Notes: generated by a model not told the origin, from the sequence alone. Positions 21,471 through 51,778 are shown, counted from the first letter of the stretch. The stretch: 64,000 bases of DNA from a bacterium (GCA_030700065.1 JAUYKH010000003.1:2876-66875); one strand, 5' to 3'. Program-made: numbers and translations.

Positions 21471-21502
21471 AGGTGCAAAAAGTAGTCGCTAGGCAGTTGT
21501 GC

Positions 21503-23081: not shown

Positions 23082-23190
23082 CGATAAAAGCCATAAATAG
23101 GCAGCTGTCCCAAGGGGCGGCTACCTATTTTAATGAATTTTTAATCTAAACGAGCTATAATGGCTGTGTGGATTAAAAAGCTCAAATAAT

Positions 23191-26607: not shown

Positions 26608-26610
26608 CAG

Positions 26611-29696: not shown

Positions 29697-29790
29697 CGAG
29701 GCCCTATCGTCCCCGCCTGACGGCCGGCAGGTAGTCTGGTCTAGCCCTCCGGAGGAGGGTCCGCCTCCGGCGGAGACGCCACCTTGAAAA
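29697..29790 (+). repeat. insertion-bearing partial duplicate of the tRNA-Glu 5' half (GAGGCCCTATCGTC ... TAGTCTGGTCTAG ... GACGCCA)
   Basis: Blocks identical to tRNA-Glu positions 1-30 are interrupted by two GC-rich hairpin-forming insertions. The region lies about 330 bp upstream of the intact tRNA-Glu. Confidence 0.5.
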
Positions 29791-30029
29791 ATGTATTATT
29801 TATACATCATTCAAAGCACAATAAAAGAGTGGAGATATATCGGCAGCACGGCCGACATAACCGAAAGAGTTGCTGAACACAATGCCGGTAAGGTAAGATA
29901 AACCAAGCCTTACAGGCCACTAAAGCTGGTGCATACGGAAACCTTTAGAGATAAAACATCGGCTCGTAAGCGGGAAATATTTTTAAAAAGGACTGCGAAA
30001 GCACGGAAAGATTTGTTTAAAGAAATTGA
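29791..30029 (+). pseudogene. GIY-YIG nuclease family protein (small T5orf172/UPF0213-like) with an in-frame TAA at 29899..29901
   Basis: Hand translation gives MYYLYIIQSTIKEWRYIGSTADITERVAEHNAGKVR*TKPYRPLKLVHTETFRDKTSARKREIFLKRTAKARKDLFKEI. The frame runs into the tRNA-Glu gene. Confidence 0.5.
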
Positions 30030-30107
30030 GGCCCTATCGTCTAGTCTGGTCTAGGACGCCAGGTTTTCATCCTGGTAACCCGGGTTCGAATCCCGGTGGG
30101 GCTACCA
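30030..30107 (+). tRNA. tRNA-Glu (anticodon TTC), encoded CCA
   Basis: Hand-folded. The anticodon arm is CCAGG-TTTTCAT-CCTGG and the T-arm is CCGGG-TTCGAAT-CCCGG. The acceptor GGCCCTA/TGGGGCT has two G-U pairs. The D-arm is GTCT...GGAC. Confidence 0.75.
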
Positions 30108-31593
30108 AATCCGATTTTTGTTTCTGATAATCCTGATTTAGTTGATAGATAGGCGACAATTTGGCGGTTCCAAATTGCCGGCCATCAAATTTAACTTTCC
30201 CTTTGAAGATTCTCTGCTGAAAGCGTAACCGAGCCAAATAATCCGGTTCCAATTCCAGCCAAGTCTTGGCCGTGTTTCTCACAAATTTAAAGCAGTAGTC
30301 CAAGGTCTCTTCCATATCAAACTCCTCGTCTGCCTTTTCCCGGATAAGCAGGCGTTTTTGATTTATGCGCTCGTTTACCAAATTTTTTTGCTCCTCAAAT
30401 TCCTCATCCGTATATTTTTTCTGTTGGTGAAATTCAAAAATTTTCTGACGTTGCTGTTCCAAAATCGCTATGTCTTTCCGGATTACGGCGTTTTGCCCGT
30501 CCAGCCGCTTGTAATTGTTTTTCCAGATATCGATCATCACGGCCTTAAAAATTTTTTCATATCTGGGACTTGGGGTGATGCTGTCCAAATACTCCACAAA
30601 AAACTGCTCAAACGTTTCTTTGGGGATAAATTTGGTTTTGTCGCATCCCTGTTTTTGGTGATGGTAATAAGCGTATTTTTGGCTCCTGCCACGGCTTTGG
30701 CTGCCAGTCAGCGACTTATCGCACAAATCGCAAACAACCAACTTGCGCAGCGGAAACAACGGATTGTTTATAGAGTGTGGCCGCGGCCCGGCCGAGATTT
30801 TTCCAAATCCGGGCTGGCAACTAGCAAAAAGATTTTTGGATACAATCGGCTCAAAACTCCCTTCGTATTCCTTGCCCCAAATTTTGATGATCCCGCAATA
30901 CAATGGATTTTTTAGAATTTTTTCCATGAGTTGTTGACACGGAACGGATCCGAAACTGGTTCTGAATCCTCGACTGGTCAAAAGTTCGGCTAGACTTTTG
31001 AAAGTATGCTCGCCTTTGGCCCATTCCTCAAAAATCATTTTGACAAAATGGGCGGAATTAGGATCAGGGGCGATATTGTTACTTTTTGCTGGCCGATAGT
31101 ACCCAACCGGGCATTTCCAGACCCATACTCCTTGTTTAATTCTTTCCAACATACCCTGCACCGTGCGTTCGGTACGCATGTTGTTATCCAACTCCGCAAA
31201 TAATGAAAGCATCTGTCCAAAGGCAATACCAGACGGGCCAGTGCCATACGGTTCTGTAACTGATATTAGCTCTGTGCCGGCCTGCACAAGTAGGTCTTTG
31301 ATGTCAATATAGTCTTTAAGACGGCGGGCAAATCGATCCAGTTTGTAGACAATAAAAACACTAATTTTGTTTTTATTGTCTTTGCAGCGGTTGATTGCCT
31401 TTGTGAATTCTGTCCGGTCGGCAGTTTTTGCTGACTCCCCGCGCTCAACAAACACTTTTAAAACCTTGATGTTTTGCCGCTCCGCGTATTCCCGGCACAG
31501 TCGCTCCTGGCTTGCCAAACTGGTGCCCTCAAGCTGGTCATAGGAGCTCACCCGGCAATAAATCACCCCTGTTTTTTGAGTTGTCTGCGTCAT
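30067..31593 (-). CDS. large serine recombinase (resolvase catalytic domain + recombinase domain + zinc ribbon), integrase of element 1
   Basis: The N-terminus VIYCRVSSYDQ carries the catalytic serine. A Cys-rich segment CDLCDKSL...C is present. The last 14 codons (DLVAPPGFEPGLPG) are the reverse complement of the tRNA-Glu T-arm and acceptor. Confidence 0.85.
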   Translation of the reverse strand: MTQTTQKTGVIYCRVSSYDQLEGTSLASQERLCREYAERQNIKVLKVFVERGESAKTADRTEFTKAINRCKDNKNKISVFIVYKLDRFARRLKDYIDIKDLLVQAGTELISVTEPYGTGPSGIAFGQMLSLFAELDNNMRTERTVQGMLERIKQGVWVWKCPVGYYRPAKSNNIAPDPNSAHFVKMIFEEWAKGEHTFKSLAELLTSRGFRTSFGSVPCQQLMEKILKNPLYCGIIKIWGKEYEGSFEPIVSKNLFASCQPGFGKISAGPRPHSINNPLFPLRKLVVCDLCDKSLTGSQSRGRSQKYAYYHHQKQGCDKTKFIPKETFEQFFVEYLDSITPSPRYEKIFKAVMIDIWKNNYKRLDGQNAVIRKDIAILEQQRQKIFEFHQQKKYTDEEFEEQKNLVNERINQKRLLIREKADEEFDMEETLDYCFKFVRNTAKTWLELEPDYLARLRFQQRIFKGKVKFDGRQFGTAKLSPIYQLNQDYQKQKSDLVAPPGFEPGLPG

Positions 31594-36157: not shown

Positions 36158-37705
36158 CTACCTGTACATATAGATATTGGGCACACCTGGCCGATAATCC
36201 ATCCAGACTATTGTATTTTCATATATATCGGGGCTGCTTTGGGTTGTTCCCGGAAAATTGGTCAGTAATGTAGTCTCCCCTGTAACTATGTCATACATCA
36301 CAATATCCCCGGGGTTGTCATAGTAAGTGTCAAACCACACGATTTTTGTTCCATAGATGGCCGGTCCCCCTTGAGATCCTATGTTGCTCGAAAGCTGGGT
36401 TTCCTGGCCCGTGGTAATGTCGTACATGTACACATCCGGGTTATCATTCCGAAAATCCGTCCAAACAATGATGTTTCCGTAAATATCGGGGTGATTCTGT
36501 TGCCGTAAGGCCGTGGTAACATGCGTTTCCTGGTCTGTTGAAAGGTCATACAGATAAATATCAGAATTGCCTAAGCTGTTCCCCGTTTCATCAGGATTGC
36601 GCATGTCGTCCCACACTACTCTGTCCCCCTGTATTCGCGGACATCCGGGCAGGAGGACTGATCCCGAGAGGCTTCGTTCCTCCCCGGTAGTCAGATCCAA
36701 AAGATAAATATCACTGCGATTCGAATTACCCGGTTCATCGCTGTACCGATTGTCTCGCCACACCACGCGGTTTCCGTAAATGTCCGGGCAGGCCAGCTTG
36801 GCCAGATCGCTGTTGATTCTTGCGGTTTGTCCATTATCCGTATTGTATAAATAGACTGCGTCATTCACCCCATATACGATATTGTGCTCATAAACATGCG
36901 GGAAAATCTGCCCCTGGGACTGGACATTTGATATCTGGGCGGCTTCGCCGGTTGCAAGGTTCTTGTAGTAAACCTCCCAGGCATTGGTCCGATAATCGGC
37001 CCAGGCTACAATGTTGCCATAGATTGACGGTGAAAACTGGGGCGCATTGTTCGGGCTAACGGCAGAAATGGTGGGAGCGGGTGGCGGTGGGGGCGGAGGC
37101 AAAGCGATGTTGTAAGCGATGCAGTAAATATCCGCCGGGTGTTTTTTATCAAGTGAAACGAGCTCCAAATTATCCCCGTTGCGCGCGTTGTTATAGCATC
37201 GCAAGGCGGCAAAATCGGCTTCAATATTTTGATCGGGGTTTTCGCTCACCCACAACTTTTTGGGAAAATCTTTTTTCTTGTGAGTCGTGTCGAGGGAAGA
37301 CAAGGGAATTATCACCTCGCCGGACGAATCCGTCAGGGGAGTGAAAAAGACGTCTTTTGTTTGCCGTTGATCGGTTGAGAGCTTGAAGCTCCGGCCGCTT
37401 GTTCGGGCGCAGTTCGCGGGAATCTCGGCAGGATCTACGGGTTTGGGCGAGTATTTGGCCGGGAAATGCGGTCTGGAAGCGCTGTAGTTTGTAAAGTCCA
37501 CGTAATGCCCGCCGGTTTCGTCTTTGCGATCAGCTTTGGCATTTCCCGTAATGTCCTGCCAAGAGGGGCAATTTACGCTTATGAAATGCAACGATGCATC
37601 CGCCGGCGGAGCCGGGTGGGCCTGTGCCGTGGGCAGGATCGCCGCACCTAACACCAGCGCAACACCTCCTCCAACTATCGAGAATACAGACTTGTTCATA
37701 TTCAT
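36158..37705 (-). CDS. secreted beta-propeller repeat protein (TolB/PD40-like repeats) with a poly-proline linker
   Basis: A signal peptide MNMNKSVFSIVGGGVALVLGAAILPTAQA is present. The motif IYGNxVVWxDxR...DIYxxDLxTGEE recurs, and a PPPPPPPAP run is present. Confidence 0.5.
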   Translation of the reverse strand: MNMNKSVFSIVGGGVALVLGAAILPTAQAHPAPPADASLHFISVNCPSWQDITGNAKADRKDETGGHYVDFTNYSASRPHFPAKYSPKPVDPAEIPANCARTSGRSFKLSTDQRQTKDVFFTPLTDSSGEVIIPLSSLDTTHKKKDFPKKLWVSENPDQNIEADFAALRCYNNARNGDNLELVSLDKKHPADIYCIAYNIALPPPPPPPAPTISAVSPNNAPQFSPSIYGNIVAWADYRTNAWEVYYKNLATGEAAQISNVQSQGQIFPHVYEHNIVYGVNDAVYLYNTDNGQTARINSDLAKLACPDIYGNRVVWRDNRYSDEPGNSNRSDIYLLDLTTGEERSLSGSVLLPGCPRIQGDRVVWDDMRNPDETGNSLGNSDIYLYDLSTDQETHVTTALRQQNHPDIYGNIIVWTDFRNDNPDVYMYDITTGQETQLSSNIGSQGGPAIYGTKIVWFDTYYDNPGDIVMYDIVTGETTLLTNFPGTTQSSPDIYENTIVWMDYRPGVPNIYMYR

Positions 37706-37714: not shown

Positions 37715-38380
37715 TTAATAAATAGGTTTATTATTAAAGGCAATGTTGGTATCTCCAATAAGTTTATTTGTGCCGCCAGTACTGGCCTGTTTCATGAGCG
37801 ATTCTAGACCTCCGAATTCCTTATCGCCAAAGTAGGTATCGGTTTTATTTTGCATCGCCCTAGTAAAATCTCCCAGTGCCTCATCATATCGGCCCACTTT
37901 TAAGAAACAATAGCCCCGTTCTACCAACCCCCAACATAAACCATTAATTGCATCAGGCCCGCCAACAAACTTTAATCCAGTTGTGTAGTCAATTATGGCT
38001 TTGTCATACAGACCCTGCAGTCGGTATATTTCACCTTTTCTGTAAAAAGCTTGATAGTAGTCTGGCCGGGACAAAATCGCGTAATCTAACCATTTTAGCG
38101 CGTTATTAAAATCGTTCGCATATAAAAAATTCTGAACGGCCACTTTATATGCCGCAAGGCCGACTGACCCTAAACTTGCGCAAAAAACAGCTTCTTGTTG
38201 TAGCCCTAACCTTTCGAGTTCACAAATGATTATTTTTTGAATATCTTGTTCTTGCATACTTGTATTGGTGGAAGCCGCCCGGCTAACACAAAACCCCGTG
38301 TCAGCTGGCCTTGCGGCCCATAACCCTTTCGGGCTATGACTCGTTGAAAAGTTGCTGAACGCGGGGTTCACTGTTTTCAA
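37715..38380 (-). CDS. TPR-repeat protein; probable true start at 38257 (MQEQ), with the ORF-track N-terminus running through repeat copy 1
   Basis: TPR-like helices are present (YYQAFYRKGEIYRLQGLYDKAIIDY). The first 41 codons coincide with the 88-bp repeat element. Confidence 0.5.
   Translation of the reverse strand: MKTVNPAFSNFSTSHSPKGLWAARPADTGFCVSRAASTNTSMQEQDIQKIIICELERLGLQQEAVFCASLGSVGLAAYKVAVQNFLYANDFNNALKWLDYAILSRPDYYQAFYRKGEIYRLQGLYDKAIIDYTTGLKFVGGPDAINGLCWGLVERGYCFLKVGRYDEALGDFTRAMQNKTDTYFGDKEFGGLESLMKQASTGGTNKLIGDTNIAFNNKPIY
38283..38370 (-). repeat. 88-bp self-hairpin repeat, copy 1 (about 92% identical to copy 2 at 45792..45879, inverted orientation)
   Basis: Outer stem AACCCCGCGTTCAGC/GCTGACACGGGGTT and internal GNRA-loop hairpins. 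Based on my hand alignment of the two copies. Confidence 0.6.
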
Positions 38381-38520
38381 CGAGTTTTTCCTGCCATGCC
38401 CCAGTTATGGAGTTTAGGCCGTATTCAATTGTACTCGAATTATACGCCCGCGCTTTTTACTTATCAAGTGAAAAGTGGTAAAATAATACGACTAATTATA
38501 CTAAATACTAACTATAACAG

Positions 38521-39489
38521 ATGAGCGTAATACATGTAGGCCATTCAGAGATAGTACGATTCGCTGACGAACGAGTGAATCTCAAACGTGATGACGCGAA
38601 AGTCTTCAGAGATCAAATTAATCGTTTGCGTGATCGTTTAGAACAACACTTGAGTGAACATCCAGATTTTGCTCTTAAAAAAATGTTCCTATCAGGGAGT
38701 CTTGCAAAAGGGACAGCACTGAAATTGATTAATGATGGCGACGTTGCCGTTTACGTTTCTTCTGGCGATGCACCATCGGACACGCAGCAGCTTATCCCTT
38801 GGCTTGCACAGCGACTTCGTCAGGCCTTTCCCAATATCAAACCAGGGCAAGTCGTAGAAAATCCGTCCACGCTAACAGTATCTTTTATTGAAACAGGATT
38901 AAGGGTTGATGTCGTCCCTGTTCTTTATAGCGGTGATCCTAATTGGAAAGGTTATATTGTTTCAAAGCATACAGGGGAAAAAGTACTTACCAGCATACCG
39001 ATGCATATAGATTTCACTCGTCGCAGGAAAGCAGCAAATGAAATTCATTTCGCGCAAGTAGTCCGCCTCATGAAATTCTGGGTCAGGAATCAAAGACTAG
39101 AAAATCCAGAATTCCGATTCAAGTCATTCATGATTGAGTTGCTCGTGGCGCATCTTGCAGATCGAGGACTGCTCCAGCTTGATGACTATCCTGAAGCGTT
39201 GGCACAAATTTTTGCACATATTGCAAAAGATAGTTTTAAATCAACAATTGCATTTGGCGACCACTATGATCCCAAGCTTTGTGCTGAAACATCTCATCCG
39301 ATCCGCATTTGGGATCCCATAAACCATCAAAATAATACTGCTAGTCGCTATACTGACGCACAAAGAAAAACGATTATCGAATTCGCATTAGATGCTGGCG
39401 ATGCCATTGACTCCGCTCTCCACGCTACTACAAAGGCCGACACTCTACGATACTGGCGCAAAGTTTTAGGATCAACATTTGACGCATAA
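38521..39489 (+). CDS. cGAS/DncV-like nucleotidyltransferase (CD-NTase, CdnC-like)
   Basis: Pol-beta NTase signature SGSLAKGTALKLINDGDVAVYV, with a third acidic residue in LRVDVVPV. A helical C-domain follows (HFAQVVRLMKFW, FKSFMIELL). Confidence 0.75.
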   Translation: MSVIHVGHSEIVRFADERVNLKRDDAKVFRDQINRLRDRLEQHLSEHPDFALKKMFLSGSLAKGTALKLINDGDVAVYVSSGDAPSDTQQLIPWLAQRLRQAFPNIKPGQVVENPSTLTVSFIETGLRVDVVPVLYSGDPNWKGYIVSKHTGEKVLTSIPMHIDFTRRRKAANEIHFAQVVRLMKFWVRNQRLENPEFRFKSFMIELLVAHLADRGLLQLDDYPEALAQIFAHIAKDSFKSTIAFGDHYDPKLCAETSHPIRIWDPINHQNNTASRYTDAQRKTIIEFALDAGDAIDSALHATTKADTLRYWRKVLGSTFDA

Positions 39490-40003
39490 AAATATGTCTA
39501 ATTCTTATACGTTTACTGAAACACAAACATTTACATTCACGGATGCAAAATACATCGCCGCGAAGGTCGCGACCGATCTTGCCCGATTTAGACGTTTTTA
39601 CAATAGCCCTTCACTTGAACTTATTAAGCAGTACGAAGAAGAACTAACTGCTTTATTGAAAGCTGATTACTTGGATAACATAACTTATGGTTTCAAGAGA
39701 GGTGAAAAATGGATAGAAGCCCTTCGCTACCATGCTCTATCAGGCGGATCTCTAGTCGGAGATGATGACCCTGGCAAAATACGTCCAGGCGTCGATGTTA
39801 TGGGAGCACATTTCACTTCTTTTTTGGTTCTAAATAGTCGCTGGAGTCAATTATCTACGGCTGCACAAGAGGCTTTTGAAGCAAATCTGCCATTTAGAAG
39901 AGGCGGTGGAGATGAACCTGCTCTTGAAAGTGGATATTGGTCACATGGTCACAATTATGCATCGGGTGGACGCAGTATTGGACGCAGTACAATAATTCGT
40001 TAA
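39479..40003 (+). CDS. HORMA-like protein (Cap7-like), putative
   Basis: The 174-aa ORF overlaps the nucleotidyltransferase gene by 11 nt. Size and position match HORMA in type III CBASS. There is no independent motif evidence. Confidence 0.45.
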   Translation: MTHKNMSNSYTFTETQTFTFTDAKYIAAKVATDLARFRRFYNSPSLELIKQYEEELTALLKADYLDNITYGFKRGEKWIEALRYHALSGGSLVGDDDPGKIRPGVDVMGAHFTSFLVLNSRWSQLSTAAQEAFEANLPFRRGGGDEPALESGYWSHGHNYASGGRSIGRSTIIR

Positions 40004-40008
40004 ATATT

Positions 40009-40941
40009 ATGGATGAAGAAAATATAGACAATCTTTTTGATCAACGCGTTAATTTCCCAGATCCCGAGGCCTTAAGGCGCTTCGATAACCTGGTCGGGAT
40101 CGATGAAATCAAGCTAAGACTTATTCGATCTCTTGGGATACTCGTGAATCCTGAAGGGGTTCGTCAATGGGGTAAAAAATTTCATCCAGAAAGCACAGCG
40201 CTAATTGAGCTTGTAGAACGTCGCCCTCCTCTGGTAATTCTCAGCGGTGATGTAGGCACGGGCAAAACAGAACTTGCAACCACAGCCGGTGACCCAGTTG
40301 CCCGTCAAGAAAGTATTGATATAACTCTGTTTCCTCTAAGTCTTTCAACCCGAGGATCTGGAAGGGTCGGCGAAATGACAAAATTACTAAGTGAAGCCTT
40401 TAACGAAACTTTCAAAACGGCAGAAAAATTTAAGAGCCGTGGTTCAAAGGCAAGAGGGGCTGTGATTCTTTTGGTTGATGAAGCTGACGCCATTGTTCAG
40501 AGTCGTGAAAATAATCAGATGCATCACGAAGACCGTGCTGGAGTAAATGCGTTTATCCGAGGTGTCGATCGTCTCGCAACTCAACGGTTACCAGTGGCTG
40601 TTATATTATGTACCAATCGACTATCTGCGATTGATCCCGCTGTACAGAGACGCGCAGCAGAAATATTTGTTTTTAACAGACCCAATCCAGCACAACGTCG
40701 CACCGTTCTACAAAAACCTTTAACGGAGATAGGTTTCACTAAAAAAGAAGTAGAAAAAATTGTTCAACTGACTGGTTCTGTAGATGGTCGTAAGCACGGA
40801 TTTACTTATTCTGATTTAACACAGCGATTACTCCCAGCATTAGTGCTCGACGCCTATCCAGATAATCAAATAACTTTTAAGCGTTCACTTGAAGTTTTGG
40901 CGACGATTAATCCAACAGCTCCGTTTCAAAAATCAGCTTAG
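40009..40941 (+). CDS. AAA+ ATPase, TRIP13/Pch2-like (Cap6-like)
   Basis: Walker A GDVGTGKTE, Walker B ILLVDEADAI, sensor-1 CTNR and arginine fingers PAVQRRA are present. The track ORF starts at 39937. I prefer the ATG at 40009, just after the upstream stop. Confidence 0.65.
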   Translation: MDEENIDNLFDQRVNFPDPEALRRFDNLVGIDEIKLRLIRSLGILVNPEGVRQWGKKFHPESTALIELVERRPPLVILSGDVGTGKTELATTAGDPVARQESIDITLFPLSLSTRGSGRVGEMTKLLSEAFNETFKTAEKFKSRGSKARGAVILLVDEADAIVQSRENNQMHHEDRAGVNAFIRGVDRLATQRLPVAVILCTNRLSAIDPAVQRRAAEIFVFNRPNPAQRRTVLQKPLTEIGFTKKEVEKIVQLTGSVDGRKHGFTYSDLTQRLLPALVLDAYPDNQITFKRSLEVLATINPTAPFQKSA

Positions 40942-40946
40942 AATAT

Positions 40947-41705
40947 ATGGTAAATAAAGCCAAAGATGATTCCATAAAGGATGGCAGATCCTTTCTGAAG
41001 GATAGGTTCATAGATGTAGAAAAATTTTTTGTACAGCAACTTAGGCTTAATCAGAAAAGAATCACTCATGATGGTGCATTAGGGGACGCCACAGAAGATG
41101 TGTGGATTCAGTTGCTTCAAGATTATCTTCCTACGCGTTATCGGGTAGCCAAAGCTTTTGCAGTTGATTACCTGGGTAATACAACCCAGCAACTTGATTG
41201 TCTTATTTACGACGCACATTTTACTCCCGCCCTGTTTGGTAAGGACAATCATTTATACGTGCCAGCAGAAGCTGTCTACGCGACCTTTGAGATTAAACAG
41301 ACCATTAATGTTCAACATTTAAAAAACGCGGGAGATAAAGTCGCTTCTTTGCGTGCTCTACATCGCACATCTGCTCCCCTTGAAAATGCGACTGGCGTAA
41401 GTGAACCAAAACAGCTATTTCCAATTATGGGAGGACTACTTGGTATGAAGGCTTCATGGAAAGACGGCCTTGGTAATACATTTCTTAAACAATTCAACAC
41501 CTTGTCAGGCGATAGAAAACTTGACCTTGTTTTAACCGCTAGTAATGGTTTCTGTGATCATTTGGTAACGACTTATACTCCCACTATTGTTCATGGTCCT
41601 GGTTCGTTAATACGTGGCCTTTTCCGCCTCCTCAAGGCTTTACGAGCCAAGGCAACAGTGGCAGCTGTTGATTGGGAAAAGTACGAATCAGTTTTTGATG
41701 CATGA
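40947..41705 (+). CDS. NucC-like restriction-endonuclease-fold (PD-(D/E)xK) effector nuclease
   Basis: LDCLIYD ... PAEAVYATFEIKQ forms a D...ExK motif. GDATEDVWIQLLQDYLPTRY and LRALHRTSAPL resemble NucC family proteins as I remember them. Confidence 0.55.
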   Translation: MVNKAKDDSIKDGRSFLKDRFIDVEKFFVQQLRLNQKRITHDGALGDATEDVWIQLLQDYLPTRYRVAKAFAVDYLGNTTQQLDCLIYDAHFTPALFGKDNHLYVPAEAVYATFEIKQTINVQHLKNAGDKVASLRALHRTSAPLENATGVSEPKQLFPIMGGLLGMKASWKDGLGNTFLKQFNTLSGDRKLDLVLTASNGFCDHLVTTYTPTIVHGPGSLIRGLFRLLKALRAKATVAAVDWEKYESVFDA

Positions 41706-41735: not shown

Positions 41736-43331
41736 TCAGCAGTGTCGATCGCCAGGCGACACCAAAGACAGCACCGACAGCATTACTGCTAATGGAATGA
41801 ATTGGCCGGCAAGCTCGTGGCAAACTCCCGCCAGGCCTTCAGATCTGCTACAATTAGGTTCCAAGTCCCTCCCACAAGGGCTACCAACAGAACTTTTATT
41901 TCTCTCTGCAACTAATTTGAACTGTTTCTTCCAATGAATCTGTAGGTTTTCCTGATCCCATTGGGTGTTTTCCAACATAGATTTCACTAAACGTCGTTTA
42001 TTCTCGTCAGAGGCCTGAACATAAGCTAAATAAGGCTGTTTGAGAAGTTTTCCAATTTCCGCGATTTTTTCCAAAGTATCCTCATCGGCCTTGTCCAAAG
42101 CACGTCTCCTATGTTGGATTTCAGCTCTTCGGTTCACGAATCCGGTTTTCATAGTTCGAAACTCCTCATCAGTTATTTCATCTTCCAAGTTTTTATTCAA
42201 AAGCATTTCCAACTTTTTCTGAAGTTTGGCCTCCTCTAGATCCAAATGCGTAAGCTCAGTAGCTTTGGTGCTTTGCAAATCTGCCCTTAGTGTGCTTACG
42301 GCCTTCAGAAATATCTCGGCTTCGGCATCAGTGAACTCTAGCTTTTTCAATTCAGTAAGGAATAGGTATTCTATCTCAGTTTCTCGAATCGAGCTCCGAA
42401 AGGAGCATTTTTTGTCCCGGCAGTTGTAGTATTTGTAAATCTTTTTGGCTGATACTGACCGCATTGGCTGATTGCAGGTTGGACAAGGGATGAGCTGTTG
42501 GAATATGTAAGTAAATGTCCTGATCTTTTTATAGCTCTTTTTGTCCATTACGGCTTGGACCTTGTCGAAAAGGGCTTTTGTAATTATTGTTTCGTGAGAA
42601 CCGTTGTAATCTTGATTCCTGTAAGTGATGATTCCATGATAAAACCTTTTTCTCAAGATTTTATACATTGCTTTCGGTTTGAGCACTTGACCTTGCTTGT
42701 TTCGCAGTCCCAGCTTTTCCATTTTCTCCGTCAGCGTCTCGATGTCATAGGTTCCGGTCGAATATAGCTCAAAAGTTTTGCGGACAAGATGAGCGTATCT
42801 AGGATCAGGTGCTTTAACTCCTCGTCCAGCATCAAGATAGCCGATAGGTGCAGCAGTTGGAGAGCGTCCATCTCGGAGCATTCCTTCGATTCCTTTGTTA
42901 ACGTGGAATTTCAGGTTCTCTGTAAAAGAGCTGGCCATTCCCCAGAGAATCATCAGCATTGATCTGGCGGCATGGTTGTTAGTGGACATTCCTTCACCGA
43001 CGAAGTGATAAGTGTACCCTTGCGTCATCAGCTCATAGAGTGTGGCTTGGTCGTACGGATTGCGAGCGCTTCTATCTACAGAGTGGAAAATCACGTTGAG
43101 GACTTCCTTTTTCCGAAGCTGTTTGATCATATCTCCGAACTGCGGCCGATCAAGTTCCGATGCGCTGTCGACCTCGACATATTCCTTTATGATTGTGAGT
43201 TTACTTCTATCAGCGTACAAATTGATCTGCCGCTGTTGCTCTTCAAGACTTTGACCAAAACTCTGAAGTCGGCTCGATACGCGAATGTATGAAAAGGCTT
43301 GTTTTTGCTCCGATTCCTGCTGTTCTGTCAT
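41736..43331 (-). CDS. large serine recombinase #2 (resolvase domain + recombinase + zinc ribbon)
   Basis: FSYIRVSSRLQ carries the catalytic serine. CPTCNQPMRS...YYNCRDKKCSF is a zinc ribbon. A coiled-coil C-terminus follows. Confidence 0.85.
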   Translation of the reverse strand: MTEQQESEQKQAFSYIRVSSRLQSFGQSLEEQQRQINLYADRSKLTIIKEYVEVDSASELDRPQFGDMIKQLRKKEVLNVIFHSVDRSARNPYDQATLYELMTQGYTYHFVGEGMSTNNHAARSMLMILWGMASSFTENLKFHVNKGIEGMLRDGRSPTAAPIGYLDAGRGVKAPDPRYAHLVRKTFELYSTGTYDIETLTEKMEKLGLRNKQGQVLKPKAMYKILRKRFYHGIITYRNQDYNGSHETIITKALFDKVQAVMDKKSYKKIRTFTYIFQQLIPCPTCNQPMRSVSAKKIYKYYNCRDKKCSFRSSIRETEIEYLFLTELKKLEFTDAEAEIFLKAVSTLRADLQSTKATELTHLDLEEAKLQKKLEMLLNKNLEDEITDEEFRTMKTGFVNRRAEIQHRRRALDKADEDTLEKIAEIGKLLKQPYLAYVQASDENKRRLVKSMLENTQWDQENLQIHWKKQFKLVAERNKSSVGSPCGRDLEPNCSRSEGLAGVCHELAGQFIPLAVMLSVLSLVSPGDRHC

Positions 43332-43393: not shown

Positions 43394-43825
43394 TTACTGC
43401 TGTTTTGACCTCTTTTTTCTTCTGTCCCTCTCCTCCTGCTCTCTCTGGAACTGCAGAAATTCCTCATGCTGTTCTTTCGACCTTTTTTCTTCGTACTCCA
43501 AGTCTTCCCTGCGTTTTTTGTCCTCCTCGCTCTCTTCTCGTATGGCTTTGTATTTGGGAATATTCCTGTATATCGTGTCAAGATTGTAGCTCAGTCCGCG
43601 TTCCTCAAAGTAAGATTTTAATTCCGCGATGAGACTGTACGCTTTTTCAAGGGCCCAATCGTTAATCTTCTTTGCGGCCCTGACGTGTCTCTCGAACGGC
43701 TCGTATTTTCTGTCGAGCTTTGCGATCCAGAAATAGAACTCTACGATTTTCTGAACATTGGTGAGATTTCTCTTACTCAGAGATTGGAGATGTTTATTAA
43801 AATCAGGTAAAAAATCTTGATTCAT
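43394..43825 (-). CDS. hypothetical charged protein
   Basis: The 143-aa ORF has a K/E/R-rich C-terminus. Confidence 0.4.
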   Translation of the reverse strand: MNQDFLPDFNKHLQSLSKRNLTNVQKIVEFYFWIAKLDRKYEPFERHVRAAKKINDWALEKAYSLIAELKSYFEERGLSYNLDTIYRNIPKYKAIREESEEDKKRREDLEYEEKRSKEQHEEFLQFQREQEERDRRKKRSKQQ

Positions 43826-43921
43826 AGAATTTTCTTGATATATAAACCTAAAAGGTTTAAGTTAATTACTTTTCTTAATTTAAAGTTACTTACTTCTTAA
43901 TAATCCAATCAATTTGATTGG

Positions 43922-44287
43922 CTATGGAGGTTTATCTAGCCTATATTTTTGATTGGTACGGATTAGCAGCCATTTTCGGAGCTTTTCATCAGGCAATAAT
44001 TTATACCTTGTTGCAACTCCAACCTTGTCTATCCTGAATCCGCTTTCATACTTAATCAGACCCAGTTCTCGCAGTTTTTTTCTGGCACGGTTGATTGCAG
44101 CAGGACTAAGGCCAAAGCGCTTTGTAATTTGCCGGTCAGTGTAATGAAACTTGTCGGTCGAAAACCGATGAGACAAATACCAGAGAATCAAAAGCAGTTC
44201 AAACTCGGACGGCTTGAGGATCAGCAGATATTTCTCCAACAGCCGATTAGGCAGCATCAGAAAGTTTTTCTCTGGTATGAGCTTCAT
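43922..44287 (-). CDS. winged-helix HTH DNA-binding protein
   Basis: YTDRQITKRFGLSPAAINRARKKLRELGLI is an HTH. Confidence 0.5.
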   Translation of the reverse strand: MKLIPEKNFLMLPNRLLEKYLLILKPSEFELLLILWYLSHRFSTDKFHYTDRQITKRFGLSPAAINRARKKLRELGLIKYESGFRIDKVGVATRYKLLPDEKLRKWLLIRTNQKYRLDKPP

Positions 44288-44862
44288 AGTCCCTTCGGCC
44301 AGTCTCTGTAGATTCGCAAAGCGTTTTTTACCTGAATTTCCTGGCCCTGAATATCTCTAGCTGAAATTTTTTTACCGGCCATGACTTCGCTGTACGGCAC
44401 ATATGGCAAAACCCGGTAAATCTTCCGGTCCACTATTGGTGTCTGCCTTCTGCCTTCAAAATACCGAGGATACTCCCTTATCTGAACAAGGGCGAAAAAC
44501 CTTTTACCGATGAGCTGTTCTGGATCAGTGTATTGATTGAAGGCGTTGATGTCCTGAATCGCATTTCCAAGAATCGAGTTTATGCTGATCACATAATGAC
44601 TCAGGATGTGATTCTTGAACGGCATTTGAGCATAAATCCACTCATTGTTGCAGCAAAGATCGTGGGCGTCGATCTGAAACGTGTCCACTTTTTTCGGTTC
44701 CTCCTCCTCGAAGTGGTAGGTTATAATTCCTCTTTTCACCTCTGTGACCTTCATCATGTGCACGTCAAAGGACTCGCCAGTTACATCTTTGACAATTTTA
44801 TAAACTTTCTCGGCCGCTTTGAGTCTTCTTTTGCGAAGCCTCTCTTGCTTGTTGTTTAGCAT
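44284..44862 (-). CDS. hypothetical protein
   Basis: The 192-aa ORF overlaps the downstream gene by 4 nt. Confidence 0.4.
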   Translation of the reverse strand: MLNNKQERLRKRRLKAAEKVYKIVKDVTGESFDVHMMKVTEVKRGIITYHFEEEEPKKVDTFQIDAHDLCCNNEWIYAQMPFKNHILSHYVISINSILGNAIQDINAFNQYTDPEQLIGKRFFALVQIREYPRYFEGRRQTPIVDRKIYRVLPYVPYSEVMAGKKISARDIQGQEIQVKNALRIYRDWPKGL

Positions 44863-45105
44863 TTTCTATCTCCTCAAAAATTGCCAGAATCGCCTGGAAA
44901 AACTCCAGGAGATCTGGATCGATTTCGTTATTTAATTGTTCCGAATTCTCAAACATAAAAAGCCCGCATCGATCTACAAGCGTTTAGCTTATAAACCAAT
45001 ACGGGCTTCCTACCGTTTGAGACCACTACTCGCGGTGGGTTTTATATTAAGTTTAACTAAGCATAGTTTACACTATATTAAATCGGTTGTCAAGAATCCT
45101 CACTG

Positions 45106-45543
45106 CTATTTTAATTTCAGCAAATAATCACCAGCTATTTCAACCTCTGGCCGACCTGGTTCGCTTTTAAGTACTCTCTCCCTATCTTCAATGAAAAGTG
45201 TGTCTCGTTTGGTGCCGTCTTCGTCTTGCTCCCGTGCCCAATCGTAAGTGCCGTCGAAAATTAAAGTATTGAACTTGCCGCAGTTTTCGCAGTACGCCGC
45301 CATTTCAATAAACTTCACGAAGACTTTTGTATTTTTTCCGGCTTTAATTTTTGCCCTGTTGCCGTTAATGTCAATAACTAATATTGCACTGCAATCTGAA
45401 CATACCCATGATTCACGGTTATCGGCTCGCCGCATTTTCGCATCTATGTATTTGTTCTCTTCTCTGGCTTTTTGCCATTCTTCTTCGCTACCATAAGTCC
45501 GTTTGTAAAACTCTTGTATAAATTCTCTCAAATTTTTGGCCAT
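45106..45543 (-). CDS. hypothetical zinc-ribbon protein
   Basis: CSDCS ... CENCGK pairs are present. Confidence 0.4.
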   Translation of the reverse strand: MAKNLREFIQEFYKRTYGSEEEWQKAREENKYIDAKMRRADNRESWVCSDCSAILVIDINGNRAKIKAGKNTKVFVKFIEMAAYCENCGKFNTLIFDGTYDWAREQDEDGTKRDTLFIEDRERVLKSEPGRPEVEIAGDYLLKLK

Positions 45544-45791
45544 AGTATAAAGTTAATAATTTCCCTTATTTTACAGGAAACGGCGTAAAAGAGTAATAGG
45601 CTGACGCATATGACACGCATTCCCTAACGCAATAGGGATAGACATACATGAACCAAAAAGTGCTCCAAACGGCCGTTTTTCGTCAAATAACAGCTATTTA
45701 TGAATTAAGCAGGAAGTTATATAATAAAAATGACAATTAAGCCTAAACCTTTGAAAATGAGGCATGGCACAAAAAACTCATGGAAGATACT

Positions 45792-45879
45792 GAACCCCGC
45801 GTTCAGCAACTCTTCCATGAGTCATATCCCGAAAGGGCTATGGGCCGAAAGGCTAGCTGACACGGGGTTTTGTGTTACC
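45792..45879 (+). repeat. 88-bp self-hairpin repeat, copy 2
   Basis: See copy 1. The track ORF 45730..45927 is merely a translation of this element. Confidence 0.6.
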
Positions 45880-48197: not shown

Positions 48198-49127
48198 ATG
48201 AGTATTGAAAAAAAGTGGCTAGCACCTGTTTATAAAAGACTTGCTAAATCTGAACTGGGAAAGGCAAGCCATACATCCGGCATCGTACCAACGAGAATCA
48301 CGACACGTTACTTCGGAATCCCGAGATTAAAAAAAACACATACCATAAATAGAATCAGTATAGAATTCTGGTATGAAAACAAAAGCACGTTTATAACTAC
48401 AAACGTAAATTATCATGAAGCCGAAACACATCAAAAACAGATTCACTTAAGTGGCAATTTGTTTCCGACCTATAAAAAATTTGGCGCAGAACAAGGAGAT
48501 ATTGTAGTGTTCTGGAGGTCGGCAGATGGTGATAAACTTTTTAAAGCAGAACTGATAAAGCAAAATTCAAGCAGGTGGAAACAAATCAAGAGCCGTCGAC
48601 ATTTCCCTGGTTCGGGGGGATTTATAATTCTTGATCCACCAGGAAAAGGAATCGCCGCTGGTTTTGTTGGTGAGAACCAAGATGAATATCAAATTCCTTC
48701 CAGTGTAGAACTTGAATTCACTGTTGCAAATTTTCCTCCAGAAAAAAGACGCGGTAAATTAGTGCAAAAACAGACTGAAGCTCCCTTAAGAAGCAAAATC
48801 AAAGGAGATTTTGTACTTAAAATGCGAAACTATAAATGCGAGGGCAACCTCTCTCATAATACTTTTATTACACCAAATGGTTTTCCGTATATGGAGAAGC
48901 ATCACTTGATCCCAATGAAGTATTATGACGAGTTCGAATATGACCTTGATGACATCAATAACCTCATTTCATTGTGCCCGGTGTGCCATCGAAAAATACA
49001 TTATGGCAAAACGGATGAAAAGGTCTCTCTAATAGAGAGCCTTTGGAATAAACACAAGACTGATCTGGAAAAATCAAATCTGAGTATTGAGATCAGTGAG
49101 TTAAAGAAAAAATATTCATCTGAATAA
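48198..49127 (+). CDS. HNH-motif restriction endonuclease (putative Type II R subunit)
   Basis: A C-terminal HNH motif CEGNLSHNTF...HHLIPMK...CPVCHRKIH is present. The gene lies next to two C5-cytosine methyltransferases. Confidence 0.55.
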   Translation: MSIEKKWLAPVYKRLAKSELGKASHTSGIVPTRITTRYFGIPRLKKTHTINRISIEFWYENKSTFITTNVNYHEAETHQKQIHLSGNLFPTYKKFGAEQGDIVVFWRSADGDKLFKAELIKQNSSRWKQIKSRRHFPGSGGFIILDPPGKGIAAGFVGENQDEYQIPSSVELEFTVANFPPEKRRGKLVQKQTEAPLRSKIKGDFVLKMRNYKCEGNLSHNTFITPNGFPYMEKHHLIPMKYYDEFEYDLDDINNLISLCPVCHRKIHYGKTDEKVSLIESLWNKHKTDLEKSNLSIEISELKKKYSSE

Positions 49128-50198
49128 ACTATTAAGCAGAGATGTTTTTCTAAAGATTGACTTCAGTACTGTTTCTGCCACGTTAACGGTAATTGCATTC
49201 CCGGATTGACGGTATAATTGTGTATCCGAAACCCCGGCACTTTTTGCTTTATAAACGAACTCATCAGGAAAACCCTGTAATCTGAAAGCTTCAACAGGGG
49301 TGATTCTTCTTATTCTGCCCGGCCCCTCAGTGCTTTCAGCCAGTGCTACTGACTGTTTAATATTGCTGAAATTTCCGAAAATAAAGCGATCAGAATAATA
49401 GTTATCCTGGTTTGCCCTATGGAGTTTATGCATTGTAGCAGTCAATGGTCTGGCAATTAACCGATTTATTTCCGATTTAGAACTATATCCACCTGTGCCA
49501 TCGGAAAGAATAGTTTTCAATATTTTTTTTGACAGATAATATTTGTCATCAACCTCCCTTTCAAGAAGGTGCCAAACTGTTTTATATCTTTGAGAAGTTT
49601 TTTCTTTCTGGAACTCCAGTTCTTTGATCTCTTCATAAACTCCTTGATTTTTTGTCCCTATAAGATATATGCGTCTTCTGGTCTGAGGTACACCAAAATT
49701 ATGGCTATTCAGAACATCAACACGCACTTTGTATTCCAACTTGACGGTTAGAATATCAAGAATACGTTGCAGAGTTTTCCCGTTATCGTGGCTCTGCAGG
49801 CCCCTAACATTTTCCAGTACAAAAAGTTGTGGTTTTTTCGTTTCTAATATTTTCGCTATATAGAAGAATAAAGTACCTCTTGCATCTGTAAATCCTTTCT
49901 TGAGTCCCATCAAGCTGAAAGGTTGACAGGGAAAGCCGGCAAAAAGAACTTCAAAATCCGGAATACTTTTTTCTATAGTTTTTTTCGATTCAAATTTTGT
50001 AATATCTCCGAGTCCTGTTTCTGAATCCACATCAAAATTTGTCCCATAAGTAAGTACTGCGTTTTTATCTATTTCACTGTACCCGACACATTTGGTATTT
50101 AAACCAATTTTTTTTCCGACCCTCTCCATTGCCAACCTAAAACCACCAATTCCGGAAAATAAATCTAAATACCGAACCTGTTCATTTCTGTTAAACAT
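49116..50198 (-). CDS. DNA (cytosine-5)-methyltransferase
   Basis: Motif I DLFSGIGG, motif IV GFPCQPFS and ENV (LENVRGL) are present. Confidence 0.9.
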   Translation of the reverse strand: MFNRNEQVRYLDLFSGIGGFRLAMERVGKKIGLNTKCVGYSEIDKNAVLTYGTNFDVDSETGLGDITKFESKKTIEKSIPDFEVLFAGFPCQPFSLMGLKKGFTDARGTLFFYIAKILETKKPQLFVLENVRGLQSHDNGKTLQRILDILTVKLEYKVRVDVLNSHNFGVPQTRRRIYLIGTKNQGVYEEIKELEFQKEKTSQRYKTVWHLLEREVDDKYYLSKKILKTILSDGTGGYSSKSEINRLIARPLTATMHKLHRANQDNYYSDRFIFGNFSNIKQSVALAESTEGPGRIRRITPVEAFRLQGFPDEFVYKAKSAGVSDTQLYRQSGNAITVNVAETVLKSIFRKTSLLNSLFR

Positions 50199-50220
50199 TT
50201 TTGTTTTTTCATTTTAATCT

Positions 50221-51372
50221 CTAAAAAGCTATTCGCTTTACGTTTTTTGCTATTATTCCTGCCAGGATCGGTGGGACAGAGTTTCCAATTTGATTATACC
50301 ATTGTGTAAAGGGACCGTAAAAAATATAGTTATCGGGAAAACTCTGGATTCTTGCTGCCTCTCTCGGAGTCAGTCCCCTCGTTTCATAGGGATGAATGTA
50401 CATATGACAGTCGAATTTCATATGTGAGGTGATGGTTTTTGAAGGTTCGTTAGGGAGAAGCTTATAAAATTTATCTTTAAAAATACCATTTCTTTTTGTG
50501 TACGGCATGATATGAGAAATAACAGGGTGGTCTGACTTTCCTCCCTGGGGCAATAGCCTGTATATCTCTATATCTCTTTTATTATTATATCTTGTTTTGT
50601 GATTGAATATAAATTCCGGAATTTTGCCACCATTGATTTTAAGGATATACTCGGGAGGTTTTTCTTTCGGGAAAAGTTCATCTTTTGTAAATCCATGGTC
50701 CCTTGATTCTATACTCGTATCATTCTTTTCTGATTTTGGTTGTAATTTTCTCAGTCCCCATAAAGCATCTTTTATAGGAACTTCTTTTGTTTCTTGATGT
50801 TTTAGAATCTGTGCAAATATGCGCTCTATTATATCATAAGGATTTTTAAATTTATCCGATCTACATCCGATGTAAAAAATTCTTTCTCTATTCTGTGGTA
50901 TTCCAAAGAATTTGGCATTTAAAACCCTATATTGTGTTTGATATCCGATTTTAAGAGAATCGTAAACAACTTGATCAGCAACTTTATTCATACCTTTAAC
51001 ATTCTCCATCAAAAACATTTTCGGCTTTATAATAGAAATGGCCTCCATAAATTTTTTATATAATTTATTTCTAGGATCATCAATAAGTCTTTGTCTGTTA
51101 GCCATACTAAAACCCTGGCAAGGGGGGCCTCCAACAACCAGATCACATTTAATACTAGCCAATTCCTTACTTTTATCCTTTATGAAATCCTCTATATCAC
51201 CGCACACAATCCTGTCCGGTGATATATGAAGGTAGTTCTTTTGGAACGTTTCAATTGAATGTTTATCTATATCATTTGCATACAGAGGTATGAATCCCTG
51301 TGATTCAAAGCCGATAGATAGCCCTCCTGCTCCGCAGAACAAATCAATAAAGGTAATTTTATTATTTTTCAT
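50221..51372 (-). CDS. DNA (cytosine-5)-methyltransferase (second copy)
   Basis: DLFCGAGG, GGPPCQGFS and ENVKGM are present. Confidence 0.9.
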   Translation of the reverse strand: MKNNKITFIDLFCGAGGLSIGFESQGFIPLYANDIDKHSIETFQKNYLHISPDRIVCGDIEDFIKDKSKELASIKCDLVVGGPPCQGFSMANRQRLIDDPRNKLYKKFMEAISIIKPKMFLMENVKGMNKVADQVVYDSLKIGYQTQYRVLNAKFFGIPQNRERIFYIGCRSDKFKNPYDIIERIFAQILKHQETKEVPIKDALWGLRKLQPKSEKNDTSIESRDHGFTKDELFPKEKPPEYILKINGGKIPEFIFNHKTRYNNKRDIEIYRLLPQGGKSDHPVISHIMPYTKRNGIFKDKFYKLLPNEPSKTITSHMKFDCHMYIHPYETRGLTPREAARIQSFPDNYIFYGPFTQWYNQIGNSVPPILAGIIAKNVKRIAF

Positions 51373-51778
51373 TCTTTTCGAGATAATCCATAACCTTTGC
51401 TATACACTTATTCGGATTAGTTTTTATTTGGTGCCCCCAAAATCTTAAGACCTTAATACCGTTTTTTCGGAGGTACATGCTTATTTTTCTATCTCTTTTT
51501 ATATTTTCTCTGATTTTTTCTTTCCAGAAGCCGGCATTACTTGCAGGAGCTATATAACATCTGGGGCATTTATGCCAGAAACAGCCATCTAAAAATACAG
51601 CTAATTTATTTTTCGGGAAAAATACATCTGGTTTTCCGTAAATTTTGGTTTTAATTCTATAATTTTTTAATCCTGCGCTGTAAAGGGATTTTCTGAAATT
51701 CAATTCCAATGTAGTATTCCGTGCTTTTATCTGCGACATGTTAAAACTGCGTTGTTTTCTGGTATGAACATCAGCCAT
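51362..51778 (-). CDS. vsr: very-short-patch repair endonuclease
   Basis: FLDGCFWHKCPRC is the Vsr signature. It overlaps the methyltransferase gene. Confidence 0.8.
   Translation of the reverse strand: MADVHTRKQRSFNMSQIKARNTTLELNFRKSLYSAGLKNYRIKTKIYGKPDVFFPKNKLAVFLDGCFWHKCPRCYIAPASNAGFWKEKIRENIKRDRKISMYLRKNGIKVLRFWGHQIKTNPNKCIAKVMDYLEKNEK

Follow-up and report, generated by a model that had tools for sequence, protein, structure and literature searches.

A predicted type III CBASS operon on a serine-recombinase module within a tRNA-Glu island of Candidatus Doudnabacteria

Analyses of a 64-kb stretch of bacterial DNA (the window) indicated that the four co-oriented genes at positions 38521-41705 very probably constitute a complete type III CBASS anti-phage system of the single-HORMA kind found in Escherichia coli MS115-1 (cdnC-HORMA-trip13-nucC), carried as cargo on a serine-recombinase module within a 26-kb tRNA-Glu island of Doudnabacteria. 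The assignment was made by sequence comparison and agrees with the original prediction of a type III CBASS, each named component being matched both by profile searches and by sequence searches against solved structures. Phage resistance and HORMA-switched synthesis of a cyclic oligonucleotide are predicted by homology. As judged from RpoB, the host belongs to the CPR lineage Candidatus Doudnabacteria, in agreement with the CPR-like small genome suspected earlier: the protein is 100% identical to that of a Doudnabacteria MAG at NCBI, and its neighbours at 80-92% identity belong to Doudnabacteria or Patescibacteria.

The four operon genes and their products

The operon and the promoter-like sites upstream of it comprise the following features, given in window coordinates.

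38521-39489, + strand: cdnC, predicted CD-NTase (cGAS/DncV-like cyclase), 322 aa (PADLOC, NCBIfam, PDB 6P80)
39494-40003, + strand: predicted HORMA-domain regulator, single-HORMA type, 169 aa; alternative TTG start at 39479 (Pfam, PADLOC, PDB)
40009-40941, + strand: predicted Trip13/Pch2-like AAA+ ATPase, 310 aa (PADLOC, PDB, motifs)
40947-41705, + strand: nucC, predicted cyclic-trinucleotide-activated DNA endonuclease effector, 252 aa (PADLOC, Pfam, PDB)
38456-38484, + strand: candidate operon promoter, TTTACT-17-TAAAAT with a TG extension (consensus scan, weak)
38467-38439, - strand: divergent promoter-like site of the left LOOT gene, TTGATA-17-TATAAT, overlapping the candidate operon promoter

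The four ORFs of the original prediction were recovered on the + strand at 38521-39489 (322 aa), 39479-40003, 39937-40941 and 40947-41705 (252 aa), and all four genes are intact and full length. The long forms of genes 2 and 3 start with TTG and are probably over-extended: ATG starts at 39494 (giving 169 aa) and 40009 (giving 310 aa) agree better with homologs, which measure 169-170 aa and 309-313 aa, and with the genes called independently on an identical contig. With these starts the genes are separated by spacers of 4-5 nt, which points to a single operon. Of the overlapping or abutting arrangement described earlier, the abutting part therefore stands and the overlap disappears. All four proteins matched the corresponding PADLOC models (cyclase, HORMA, TRIP13 and NucC; E 3e-128 to 9e-67), and high-scoring family matches were obtained for each in three libraries, with HMM E-values of about 1e-52 to 1e-128 that lie far beyond chance.

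The cdnC product matched the PADLOC Cyclase model PDLC00808 (E 7e-122) and the NCBIfam equivalog CBASS_cyclase_a with 365 bits (cutoff 200), while cyclase_b gave 53 bits. Alignment with CdnC of E. coli MS115-1 (PDB 6P80; E 9e-102, residues 1-321 on 1-320, 51% identity) revealed that the active-site residues G59-S60, D72, D74 and D130 are kept; the motifs SGSLAKGTALKLINDGDVAV and LRVDVVPV, from which a CD-NTase had been proposed, were both found, and the CdnC type is supported by the NCBIfam and PDB matches. Gene 2, which had been called HORMA by size and position only, is now assigned to this family on sequence matches to Pfam bacHORMA_1 (E 5e-52, profile positions 2-168 of 169), to the PADLOC HORMA model (E 9e-67) and to PDB 6P8V chain H (E 2e-42, 50% identity). 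AlphaFold2 run on gene 2 with single-sequence input returned an all-helical model with a pLDDT of 38.6, too low to confirm a HORMA fold.

The gene 3 protein matched PADLOC TRIP13 PDLC00914 (E 3e-128), PDB 6P8V chain A (E 1e-119, 59% identity) and 6PB3 (E 3e-115), as expected for the Trip13/Pch2-like ATPase that had been proposed. The motifs GDVGTGKTE, LLVDEADAI, TNR and RR were all present, corresponding to Walker A (G83-T-G-K86-T), Walker B (D157-E158), sensor-1 and R214/R215.

The gene 4 motifs LDCLIYD and EAVYATFEIKQ were also found, and the NucC assignment was upheld by PADLOC Effector (NucC) (E 3e-74), Pfam DUF6602 (E 4e-29), PDB 7ZGV from Serratia (E 5e-55, residues 1-246) and PDB 6P7O from E. 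coli (E 5e-46), identity to the E. coli protein being 42%. Profile and PDB sequence searches revealed none of the departures that the original prediction had named, namely a gene 1 lacking the cGAS/DncV-like fold, a gene 2 that is not HORMA or a gene 4 that is not a nuclease. In the primary E. coli papers the NucC active site is IDx30EAK (D73, E104 and K106). The window protein carries L83-D84-x30-E115-I116-K117 at the positions of I72-D73 and E104-A-K106, with identical spacing and two conservative substitutions (I to L and A to I); Serratia NucC has EVK. The cAAA contacts R64, T237 and V238 are conserved, being equivalent to R53, T226 and V227 of E. coli, and F92 replaces Y81, so that aromatic stacking is kept and the hydroxyl is lost. 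The gate loop aligned ungapped and at the same length, with N147 and S152 at the positions of H136 and Y141, a latch pair that is essential in E. coli NucC and is a feature of the E. coli and P. aeruginosa proteins rather than of the whole family. Close NucC homologs carry S/S or S/N at these positions and Serratia NucC carries N/A; the latch and Y81 changes are common to the whole subfamily of about 70% identity. Since the latch pair is changed and Y81 is Phe, details of NucC activation may differ.

Across the operon proteins the catalytic residues were all kept and the cAAA-contact residues mostly kept. The residues reported as essential in the primary papers (bioRxiv 10.1101/694695, 10.1101/694703), which are CdnC D72/D74, the Trip13 Walker B Glu, NucC D73/E104/K106 and R53/T226/V227, are conserved in the window proteins. 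The public names can be corrected: the exact cdnC protein is already named 'CBASS oligonucleotide cyclase' at NCBI, while the HORMA protein (MDP3993431.1) and NucC are labelled 'hypothetical protein' and Trip13 carries the generic name 'ATP-binding protein'.

The consensus scan of the operon region gave no significant promoter or terminator signal, promoter-like sites numbering 19 against 15.7 expected from shuffling, which is not above expectation. Most close homologs have a LexA-like regulator immediately before cdnC; here that position lacks one.

The island, its recombinases and the LOOT RNA genes

The island and its main elements are listed below.

30105-56129, no strand: 26-kb genomic island at the tRNA-Glu 3' end, absent from a sister Doudnabacteria contig
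30067-31593, - strand: large serine recombinase 1 (Pfam Resolvase, Recombinase, Zn_ribbon_recom; PHROG 95, E 7e-77)
38307-38420, - strand: LOOT RNA gene, left copy (Rfam RF03000, 72.9 bits; gathering threshold 46.4)
41736-43331, - strand: large serine recombinase 2 (Pfam Resolvase, Recombinase, Zn_ribbon_recom; PHROG 95 integrase, E 5e-74)
43394-45543, - strand: four small accessory genes (143, 121, 192 and 145 aa), part of the CBASS-recombinase cassette
45740-45854, + strand: LOOT RNA gene, right copy, inverted relative to the left copy (Rfam RF03000, 76.4 bits)
48198-52481, no strand: restriction-modification-like module in island module C (HNH endonuclease, two Dcm-type C5 methylases, Vsr, LexA-like S24 repressor)

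A sister Doudnabacteria contig, 91-94% identical over both flanks, carries tRNA-Glu (window 30028-30104) only some 200 nt before the sequence that matches the window from 56130 on; because tRNA-Glu is joined almost directly to 56130, the interval 30105-56129 was identified as an island. The operon thus lies inside an island that is missing from the sister genome, and the mobile interval with an adjoining serine recombinase proposed earlier was confirmed. The flanks have a GC content of 0.50, and the island is divided into module A (30.1-38.4 kb, GC 0.46), module B (38.4-45.7 kb, GC 0.42), which has the order LOOT-CBASS-recombinase-LOOT and holds the operon, and module C (45.7-56.1 kb, GC 0.37). 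Only GGGCTA(T) was common to two junctions in a search for attachment-site repeats at the island ends, and it is too short to call. Searches for further sister genomes gave best relatives of at most 66% identity for BipA in GTDB representatives, of no use for the boundaries, and of at most 47% for the Na/Ca exchanger in JGI metagenomes.

Recombinase 1 abuts or overlaps the tRNA-Glu 3' end and is likely the integrase of the island or of module A. Recombinase 2 is convergent with nucC at a distance of 30 nt and has the catalytic-serine motif YIRVSS; the two recombinases are 28% identical and share the motif YxRVSS. The 121-aa accessory protein is winged-helix, replication-O/DnaD-like (Pfam, PHROG), and those of 143, 192 and 145 aa gave no family match in Pfam or PHROG. 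The restriction-modification-like module matched Pfam HNH, DNA_methylase twice (E 1e-84 and 4e-72), Vsr and Peptidase_S24 together with PADLOC REase models; PADLOC reported no other defence system in modules A and B. In IMG/VR neither recombinase 2 nor CdnC had relatives, and no match to CdnC was found in GenBank phages.

Both LOOT copies span model positions 1-121 of 121 above the gathering threshold of the covariance model. They form a 123-nt inverted repeat, 87% complementary, and are separated by compensatory stem changes that preserve the stems. Facing outward, the pair coincides exactly with the edges of the 7.3-kb CBASS-recombinase cassette and with its GC steps. The left copy, 100 nt upstream of cdnC, is encoded on the other strand, and its transcription is directed away from the cassette; it shares with cdnC a divergent putative promoter region of roughly 100 nt. 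LOOT (RF03000), an orphan family of small RNAs, is not known outside CPR-type phyla. It was found beside homologous CBASS in two other CPR contigs, and 124 kb of other DNA, mostly from CPR, contained none; CBASS loci not attributable to CPR had no sub-threshold copy at E up to 1, and four matches to a degenerate LOOT pattern in viral or proviral contigs included none accepted as LOOT by Rfam. The main text of the paper that described the family contains nothing on its genomic context, for which the present arrangement is a first clue. We tentatively raise the possibility, which we consider doubtful, that LOOT is a component of serine-recombinase mobile elements carrying type III CBASS between CPR and not a free-standing housekeeping sRNA. 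The RNA could control expression of the mobile element or of CBASS or, alternatively, could mark a recombination or exchange point of the cassette.

The four-gene order was found in all nine related genomic contexts (11 loci, two of the contexts being represented by two contigs each) at 53-74% identity (HORMA 43-70%), and a serine recombinase lies beside CBASS in eight of the nine as well as in the window. A Paceibacterota MAG and a further CPR-like contig have near-identical architectures. The earlier remark that such systems are rarely described in CPR holds for the literature, in which our search found no paper on CBASS in CPR, and fails as regards uniqueness, given these further CPR instances.

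Proposed mechanism and alternative readings

By homology to the solved E. coli system, the operon would work as follows. In the uninfected cell the Trip13 hexamer would pull on the HORMA N-terminus and keep HORMA open and unable to bind CdnC. Upon infection HORMA would capture a 'closure-motif' peptide and close, and its binding would activate CdnC, which is expected to make a cyclic trinucleotide, most likely 3',3',3'-cAAA. Bound in the three-fold pocket of NucC trimers, cAAA would assemble them into hexamers, and non-specific dsDNA cleavage by these would destroy the genome of the infected cell (abortive infection).

It is unlikely that this type III CBASS signals through a cyclic oligonucleotide other than cAAA, such as cAAG or a dinucleotide, with NucC tuned accordingly. 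The replacement of Y81 by Phe, gate-loop latch residues unlike those of E. coli and P. aeruginosa NucC, and a CdnC only 51% identical to the enzyme of known product would fit such a ligand; however, the residues that contact phosphate and adenine (R53, T226 and V227) have been kept, a Phe can stack on adenine too, and all characterised NucC proteins respond to cA3. We judge it improbable that the same machinery serves mainly as an addiction or stabilisation module of the mobile element and not as dedicated anti-phage defence. This CBASS lineage is always in accessory DNA, and the recombinase recurs beside it as described above, but defence systems generally ride mobile elements, so that this linkage fails to discriminate between the two roles, and the primary papers report phage immunity for the E. 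coli homolog with no sign of post-segregational killing.

That the CBASS of a non-CPR organism was misjoined to a CPR contig during assembly or binning is very improbable. The lower GC of the island relative to its flanks (0.37-0.46 against 0.50) and the GC of 0.50-0.56 of the contigs carrying several of the closest CdnC homologs could be read in this way. Against it, one sister contig is collinear with both island flanks, a serine integrase adjoining a tRNA at the junction is a classic arrangement, the same system with LOOT occurs on two other CPR-attributable contigs, and LOOT, not known outside CPR-type phyla, lies 100 nt from cdnC in a junction (TPR-LOOT-cdnC-HORMA-trip13-nucC') that is reproduced in a separate assembly (Logan, SRR13727534). 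It is scarcely credible that NucC, as some of its homologs do, acts for a type III CRISPR-Cas system instead of the neighbouring cyclase. Its closest match in PDB is indeed the CRISPR-associated Serratia NucC, but the 64-kb window has no CRISPR array, no cas gene was among those of its ORFs that were annotated, and only 5 nt separate nucC from trip13 within the operon.

On the favoured reading, that of a CBASS anti-phage system, Candidatus Doudnabacteria would possess an abortive-infection signalling system that is complete, Paceibacterota and a further CPR-like genome providing sister instances. The genomes of CPR bacteria are tiny, and each carries few defence systems. The finding bears on the cost-benefit of suicide defence in an obligate episymbiont and suggests a CBASS lineage that travels with serine recombinases, here inside a composite defence island at tRNA-Glu. 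Because the operon is closely related to the type III system that has been characterised best, it offers nothing mechanistically new for CBASS.

Comparison with known systems

The type III CBASS of E. coli MS115-1 (PDB 6P80, 6P8V, 6U7B, 6P7O; bioRxiv 10.1101/694695, 10.1101/694703; Ye et al., Lau et al.) has an identical gene order with a single HORMA, and the identities to its crystallised proteins (CdnC 51%, HORMA 50%, Trip13 59%, NucC 42%) extend over full lengths. The two differ in host, an ultra-small CPR bacterium here and a gamma-proteobacterium there, and in NucC, the window protein having N147/S152 for the H136/Y141 latch and F for Y81. At its flanks the window operon has LOOT RNA genes and a large serine recombinase; directly upstream it has no CapH/CapP, CapW or LexA-like regulator.

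Among solved structures, the NucC of a Serratia type III CRISPR-Cas locus (PDB 7ZGV/7ZGW) matches gene 4 best (E 5e-55); both have an E-x-K variant (EVK in Serratia, EIK in the window) and both lack Y141. The Serratia protein is activated by cA3 made by Cas10, whereas the partner in the window is a CD-NTase of the same operon, with no CRISPR array. The P. aeruginosa ATCC27853 CBASS (CdnD-HORMA1-HORMA2-Trip13-NucC) shares the effector family and the HORMA/Trip13 control logic but has two HORMA genes and a clade-D cyclase, while the window has one bacHORMA_1 HORMA and a CdnC-type cyclase. Plasmid-borne CdnC-HORMA-AAA operons of Alphaproteobacteria, such as that of Methylobacterium currus (NZ_CP089298.1), have a 55% identical CdnC, the first three genes in the same order and an adjoining integrase; their effector is a SAVED-domain protein, whereas that of the window is NucC, and HTH and ImmA/IrrE (CapH/CapP-like) regulators lie upstream of them.

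The CBASS operon and its host

The four forward-strand genes of the original prediction (38521-41705; cdnC, HORMA, trip13 and nucC, hereafter genes 1 to 4) were recovered as long open reading frames, and all the motifs quoted for them were found in the window sequence. When started at TTG, genes 2 and 3 each overlap the gene upstream. The ATG codons at 39494 (gene 2) and 40009 (gene 3) are the probable true starts, favoured by independent gene calls on a 3.5-kb contig of identical sequence in another assembly and by the length of every homolog. With these ATG starts the three junctions read TAA-aaat-ATG, TAA-atatt-ATG and TAG-aatat-ATG, and a packing as tight as this would be expected for a single operon. 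A search 3' of nucC gave no convincing terminator, and the convergent gene of the second serine recombinase (recombinase 2, 41736-43331, reverse strand) ends 30 nt from nucC.

Three profile libraries concurred for all four proteins, in agreement with the cyclase, HORMA, TRIP13-like and NucC-like functions that had been proposed, and sequence searches of the PDB returned the crystallised type III CBASS of E. coli MS115-1 for each of the four.

Profile and PDB matches of the four proteins (identities are to the E. coli MS115-1 proteins)
Gene 1, CdnC: PADLOC cyclase, E 7e-122; NCBIfam equivalog CBASS_cyclase_a, 365 bits (cutoff 200); Pfam SMODS; PDB 6P80, E 9e-102; 51% identity
Gene 2, HORMA: Pfam bacHORMA_1, E 5e-52 (whole profile); PADLOC HORMA, E 9e-67; PDB 6P8V_H, E 2e-42; 50% identity
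Gene 3, Trip13: PADLOC TRIP13, E 3e-128; PDB 6P8V_A, E 1e-119; Rhizobiales Pch2 6PB3, E 3e-115; 59% identity
Gene 4, NucC: PADLOC NucC effector, E 3e-74; Pfam DUF6602, E 4e-29; PDB 6P7O, E 5e-46; Serratia NucC 7ZGV, E 5e-55; 42% identity

An NCBI protein with the label Candidatus Doudnabacteria matches RpoB (6730-10074) at 100% identity, and the neighbours of RpoB at 80-92% identity were Doudnabacteria or Patescibacteria, so the earlier description of the host as CPR-like was correct. A gene of the window flank corresponds to locus tag U1C57_02810 of a Doudnabacteria MAG, and the CBASS proteins carry Q8P75_ tags in an NCBI record labelled just "bacterium"; the same 68,263-bp contig is apparently present in two NCBI MAG records, Q8P75_ as "bacterium" and U1C57_ as "Candidatus Doudnabacteria bacterium". 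The cyclase is already named by the NCBI pipeline, and the other three CBASS genes are given as "hypothetical" or "ATP-binding protein".

The island at tRNA-Glu

Comparison with L093, a 12-kb contig of a sister Doudnabacteria genome, revealed 91-94% identity to the window in the shared genes, which in L093 follow the order BipA, Na/Ca exchanger, tRNA-Glu, approximately 200 nt, HAD, TrxB-like, GDH, EF-P, S18, SSB, S6, PIG-L and YchF. These genes form two blocks in the window, at 26.6-30.1 kb and 56.1-62.9 kb, and the identity breaks exactly at the tRNA 3' end, directly after ...GGGGCTA. Since L093 joins the blocks that the window separates and the break coincides with the tRNA 3' end, the interval 30105-56129 constitutes an island of 26 kb, which lies at the 3' end of tRNA-Glu and is absent from L093. 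The island consists of three compositional modules of differing GC.

Modules of the island
Module A, 30.1-38.4 kb, GC 0.46: large serine recombinase abutting the tRNA, Prim-Pol/helicase, several unknowns
Module B, 38.4-45.7 kb, GC 0.42: LOOT RNA, CBASS, second large serine recombinase, four small genes, LOOT RNA
Module C, 45.7-56.1 kb, GC 0.37: RDD protein, HNH nuclease, two Dcm methylases, Vsr, LexA-like repressor

The HNH nuclease, the two Dcm methylases and Vsr of module C are restriction-modification-like, and recombinase 2 is just 28% identical to recombinase 1 (30067-31593, reverse strand). The three modules and the low identity of the recombinases indicate that the island is composite and partly a defence island.

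Several other features of the window were recorded. The intact tRNA-Glu (30028-30104) is preceded, at a distance of ~285 nt, by a 5' fragment of tRNA-Glu (29698-29744; the first ~27 nt, broken by ~20 nt), which may be a scar left when an element integrated earlier at the same tRNA. A second segment absent from L093, which has 35 nt between the flanks, occupies 18723-26617 (~7.9 kb) and codes for a PAS histidine kinase, a methyltransferase and a class A penicillin-binding protein. The C-terminal tail of recombinase 2 (~50 aa, …SVGSPCGRDLEPNCSRSEGLAGVCHELAGQFIPLAVMLSVLSLVSPGDRHC; 41736-41900, reverse strand) is rich in Cys, Gly, Ser and Leu, is unaligned in the comparison with recombinase 1 and may be a read-through made by a recombination junction. 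The gene at 36158-37705 (reverse strand) codes for a predicted secreted protein of 515 aa with a Pro-rich linker (PPPPPPPAP) and about eight 'DIYGNxIVWxDxR' repeats, whose periodicity is also visible as the DNA direct repeats D1 and D2; family searches with this protein gave no significant match, Kelch being marginal only.

Related CBASS loci and the LOOT RNAs

The closest CdnC homologs showed 69-75% identity, and nine genomic contexts were compared (11 fetched loci, two of the contexts being each on two contigs). The order cdnC-HORMA-trip13-nucC was found in all nine, and in eight a serine recombinase lies within a few kb, these enzymes being only 23-31% identical to those of the window. The three-gene core was also present on annotated plasmids, at ~55% identity and combined with other effectors; none of the phage records searched carried it. 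Two contexts are attributable to CPR: L103, labelled Candidatus Paceibacterota by NCBI, and L108, which has the EF-P, S18, SSB, S6 and YchF block as in the window, its YchF being 62% identical. In the L103 element the serine recombinase gene is followed directly by a group I intron (9679-9935, reverse strand; Rfam RF00028, 63.4 bits), which might lie inside a gene serving as attachment site. In L108 the recombinase gene of the element overlaps the ychF 5' end by 44 nt (5460-5503), an overlap suggestive of insertion at the beginning of a housekeeping gene.

A gene coding for a LexA-like S24 repressor is located directly upstream of cdnC in six related contexts (L002/L003, L006, L103, L105, L107 and L108). 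The window has no such gene directly upstream of cdnC and carries instead a copy of LOOT, an orphan small RNA family; a repressor of the same S24 family is found in module C (51771-52481, reverse strand), 10 kb from cdnC and beside Vsr/Dcm, and is 42-44% identical to those of L103, L105 and L107, as close as those three are mutually. The upstream LexA/CI-like repressor of most close homologs suggests control in response to DNA damage, analogous to that by CapH/CapP.

LOOT RNAs
Window, 38307-38420, reverse strand: left LOOT (Rfam RF03000)
Window, 45740-45854, forward strand: right LOOT (Rfam RF03000)
L103, 6531-6656, reverse strand: LOOT
L108, 9158-9286, reverse strand: LOOT

The window pair forms a 123-nt inverted repeat (87% complementary), and its copies point outward and are placed exactly at the GC steps bounding module B. 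Compensatory stem changes distinguish the two copies, both of which therefore look like maintained genes. All four copies have a TATAAT-like box ~20 nt upstream, and a gene on the same strand begins 10-60 nt downstream of the RNA or, in L108, has a called start that the RNA overlaps; given the box and this closeness, LOOT could represent a 5' leader or alternatively an sRNA. In L103 and L108 the RNA lies 0.7 kb from CBASS, an association drawn from a small sample, and mobile DNA of CPR bacteria may simply carry LOOT often. Searches for the RNA were negative in 124 kb of other loci, mostly of CPR, in the sister contig L093 and in the seven CBASS contexts that lack a host attribution, four of which gave no match at relaxed thresholds either.

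Comparison with the E. coli system

Residues functionally proven in the E. coli system (bioRxiv 10.1101/694695, 10.1101/694703) were mapped onto the window proteins. CdnC retains G59-S60, D72, D74 and D130, and Trip13 retains GTGKT, Walker B D157-E158, the TNR sensor and R214/R215; the crystal chain aligned with Trip13 has Q at the Walker B position, being the E159Q mutant. The NucC triad is conserved with identical spacing (L83-D84...E115-I-K117 here, I72-D73...E104-A-K106 in E. coli), as are the cAAA contacts R64, T237 and V238, while E. coli Y81 is replaced by F92 and the gate-loop latch H136/Y141 by N147/S152. Mutation of this latch abolishes activation of E. coli NucC (bioRxiv 10.1101/694695, 10.1101/694703). 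Since F92 and N147/S152-type changes are common to all close NucC homologs, and Serratia NucC likewise lacks Y141, the differences are read as a probable subfamily trait rather than decay. All four CBASS proteins have the same lengths as their homologs and show no pseudogene signs.

A full-text literature search for CBASS in CPR returned surveys of the CPR defensome and no description of CBASS. Judged by sequence, the window operon is in every testable respect a single-HORMA type III CBASS with a predicted NucC effector, and what is new here is a known kind of CBASS in an under-described host group.
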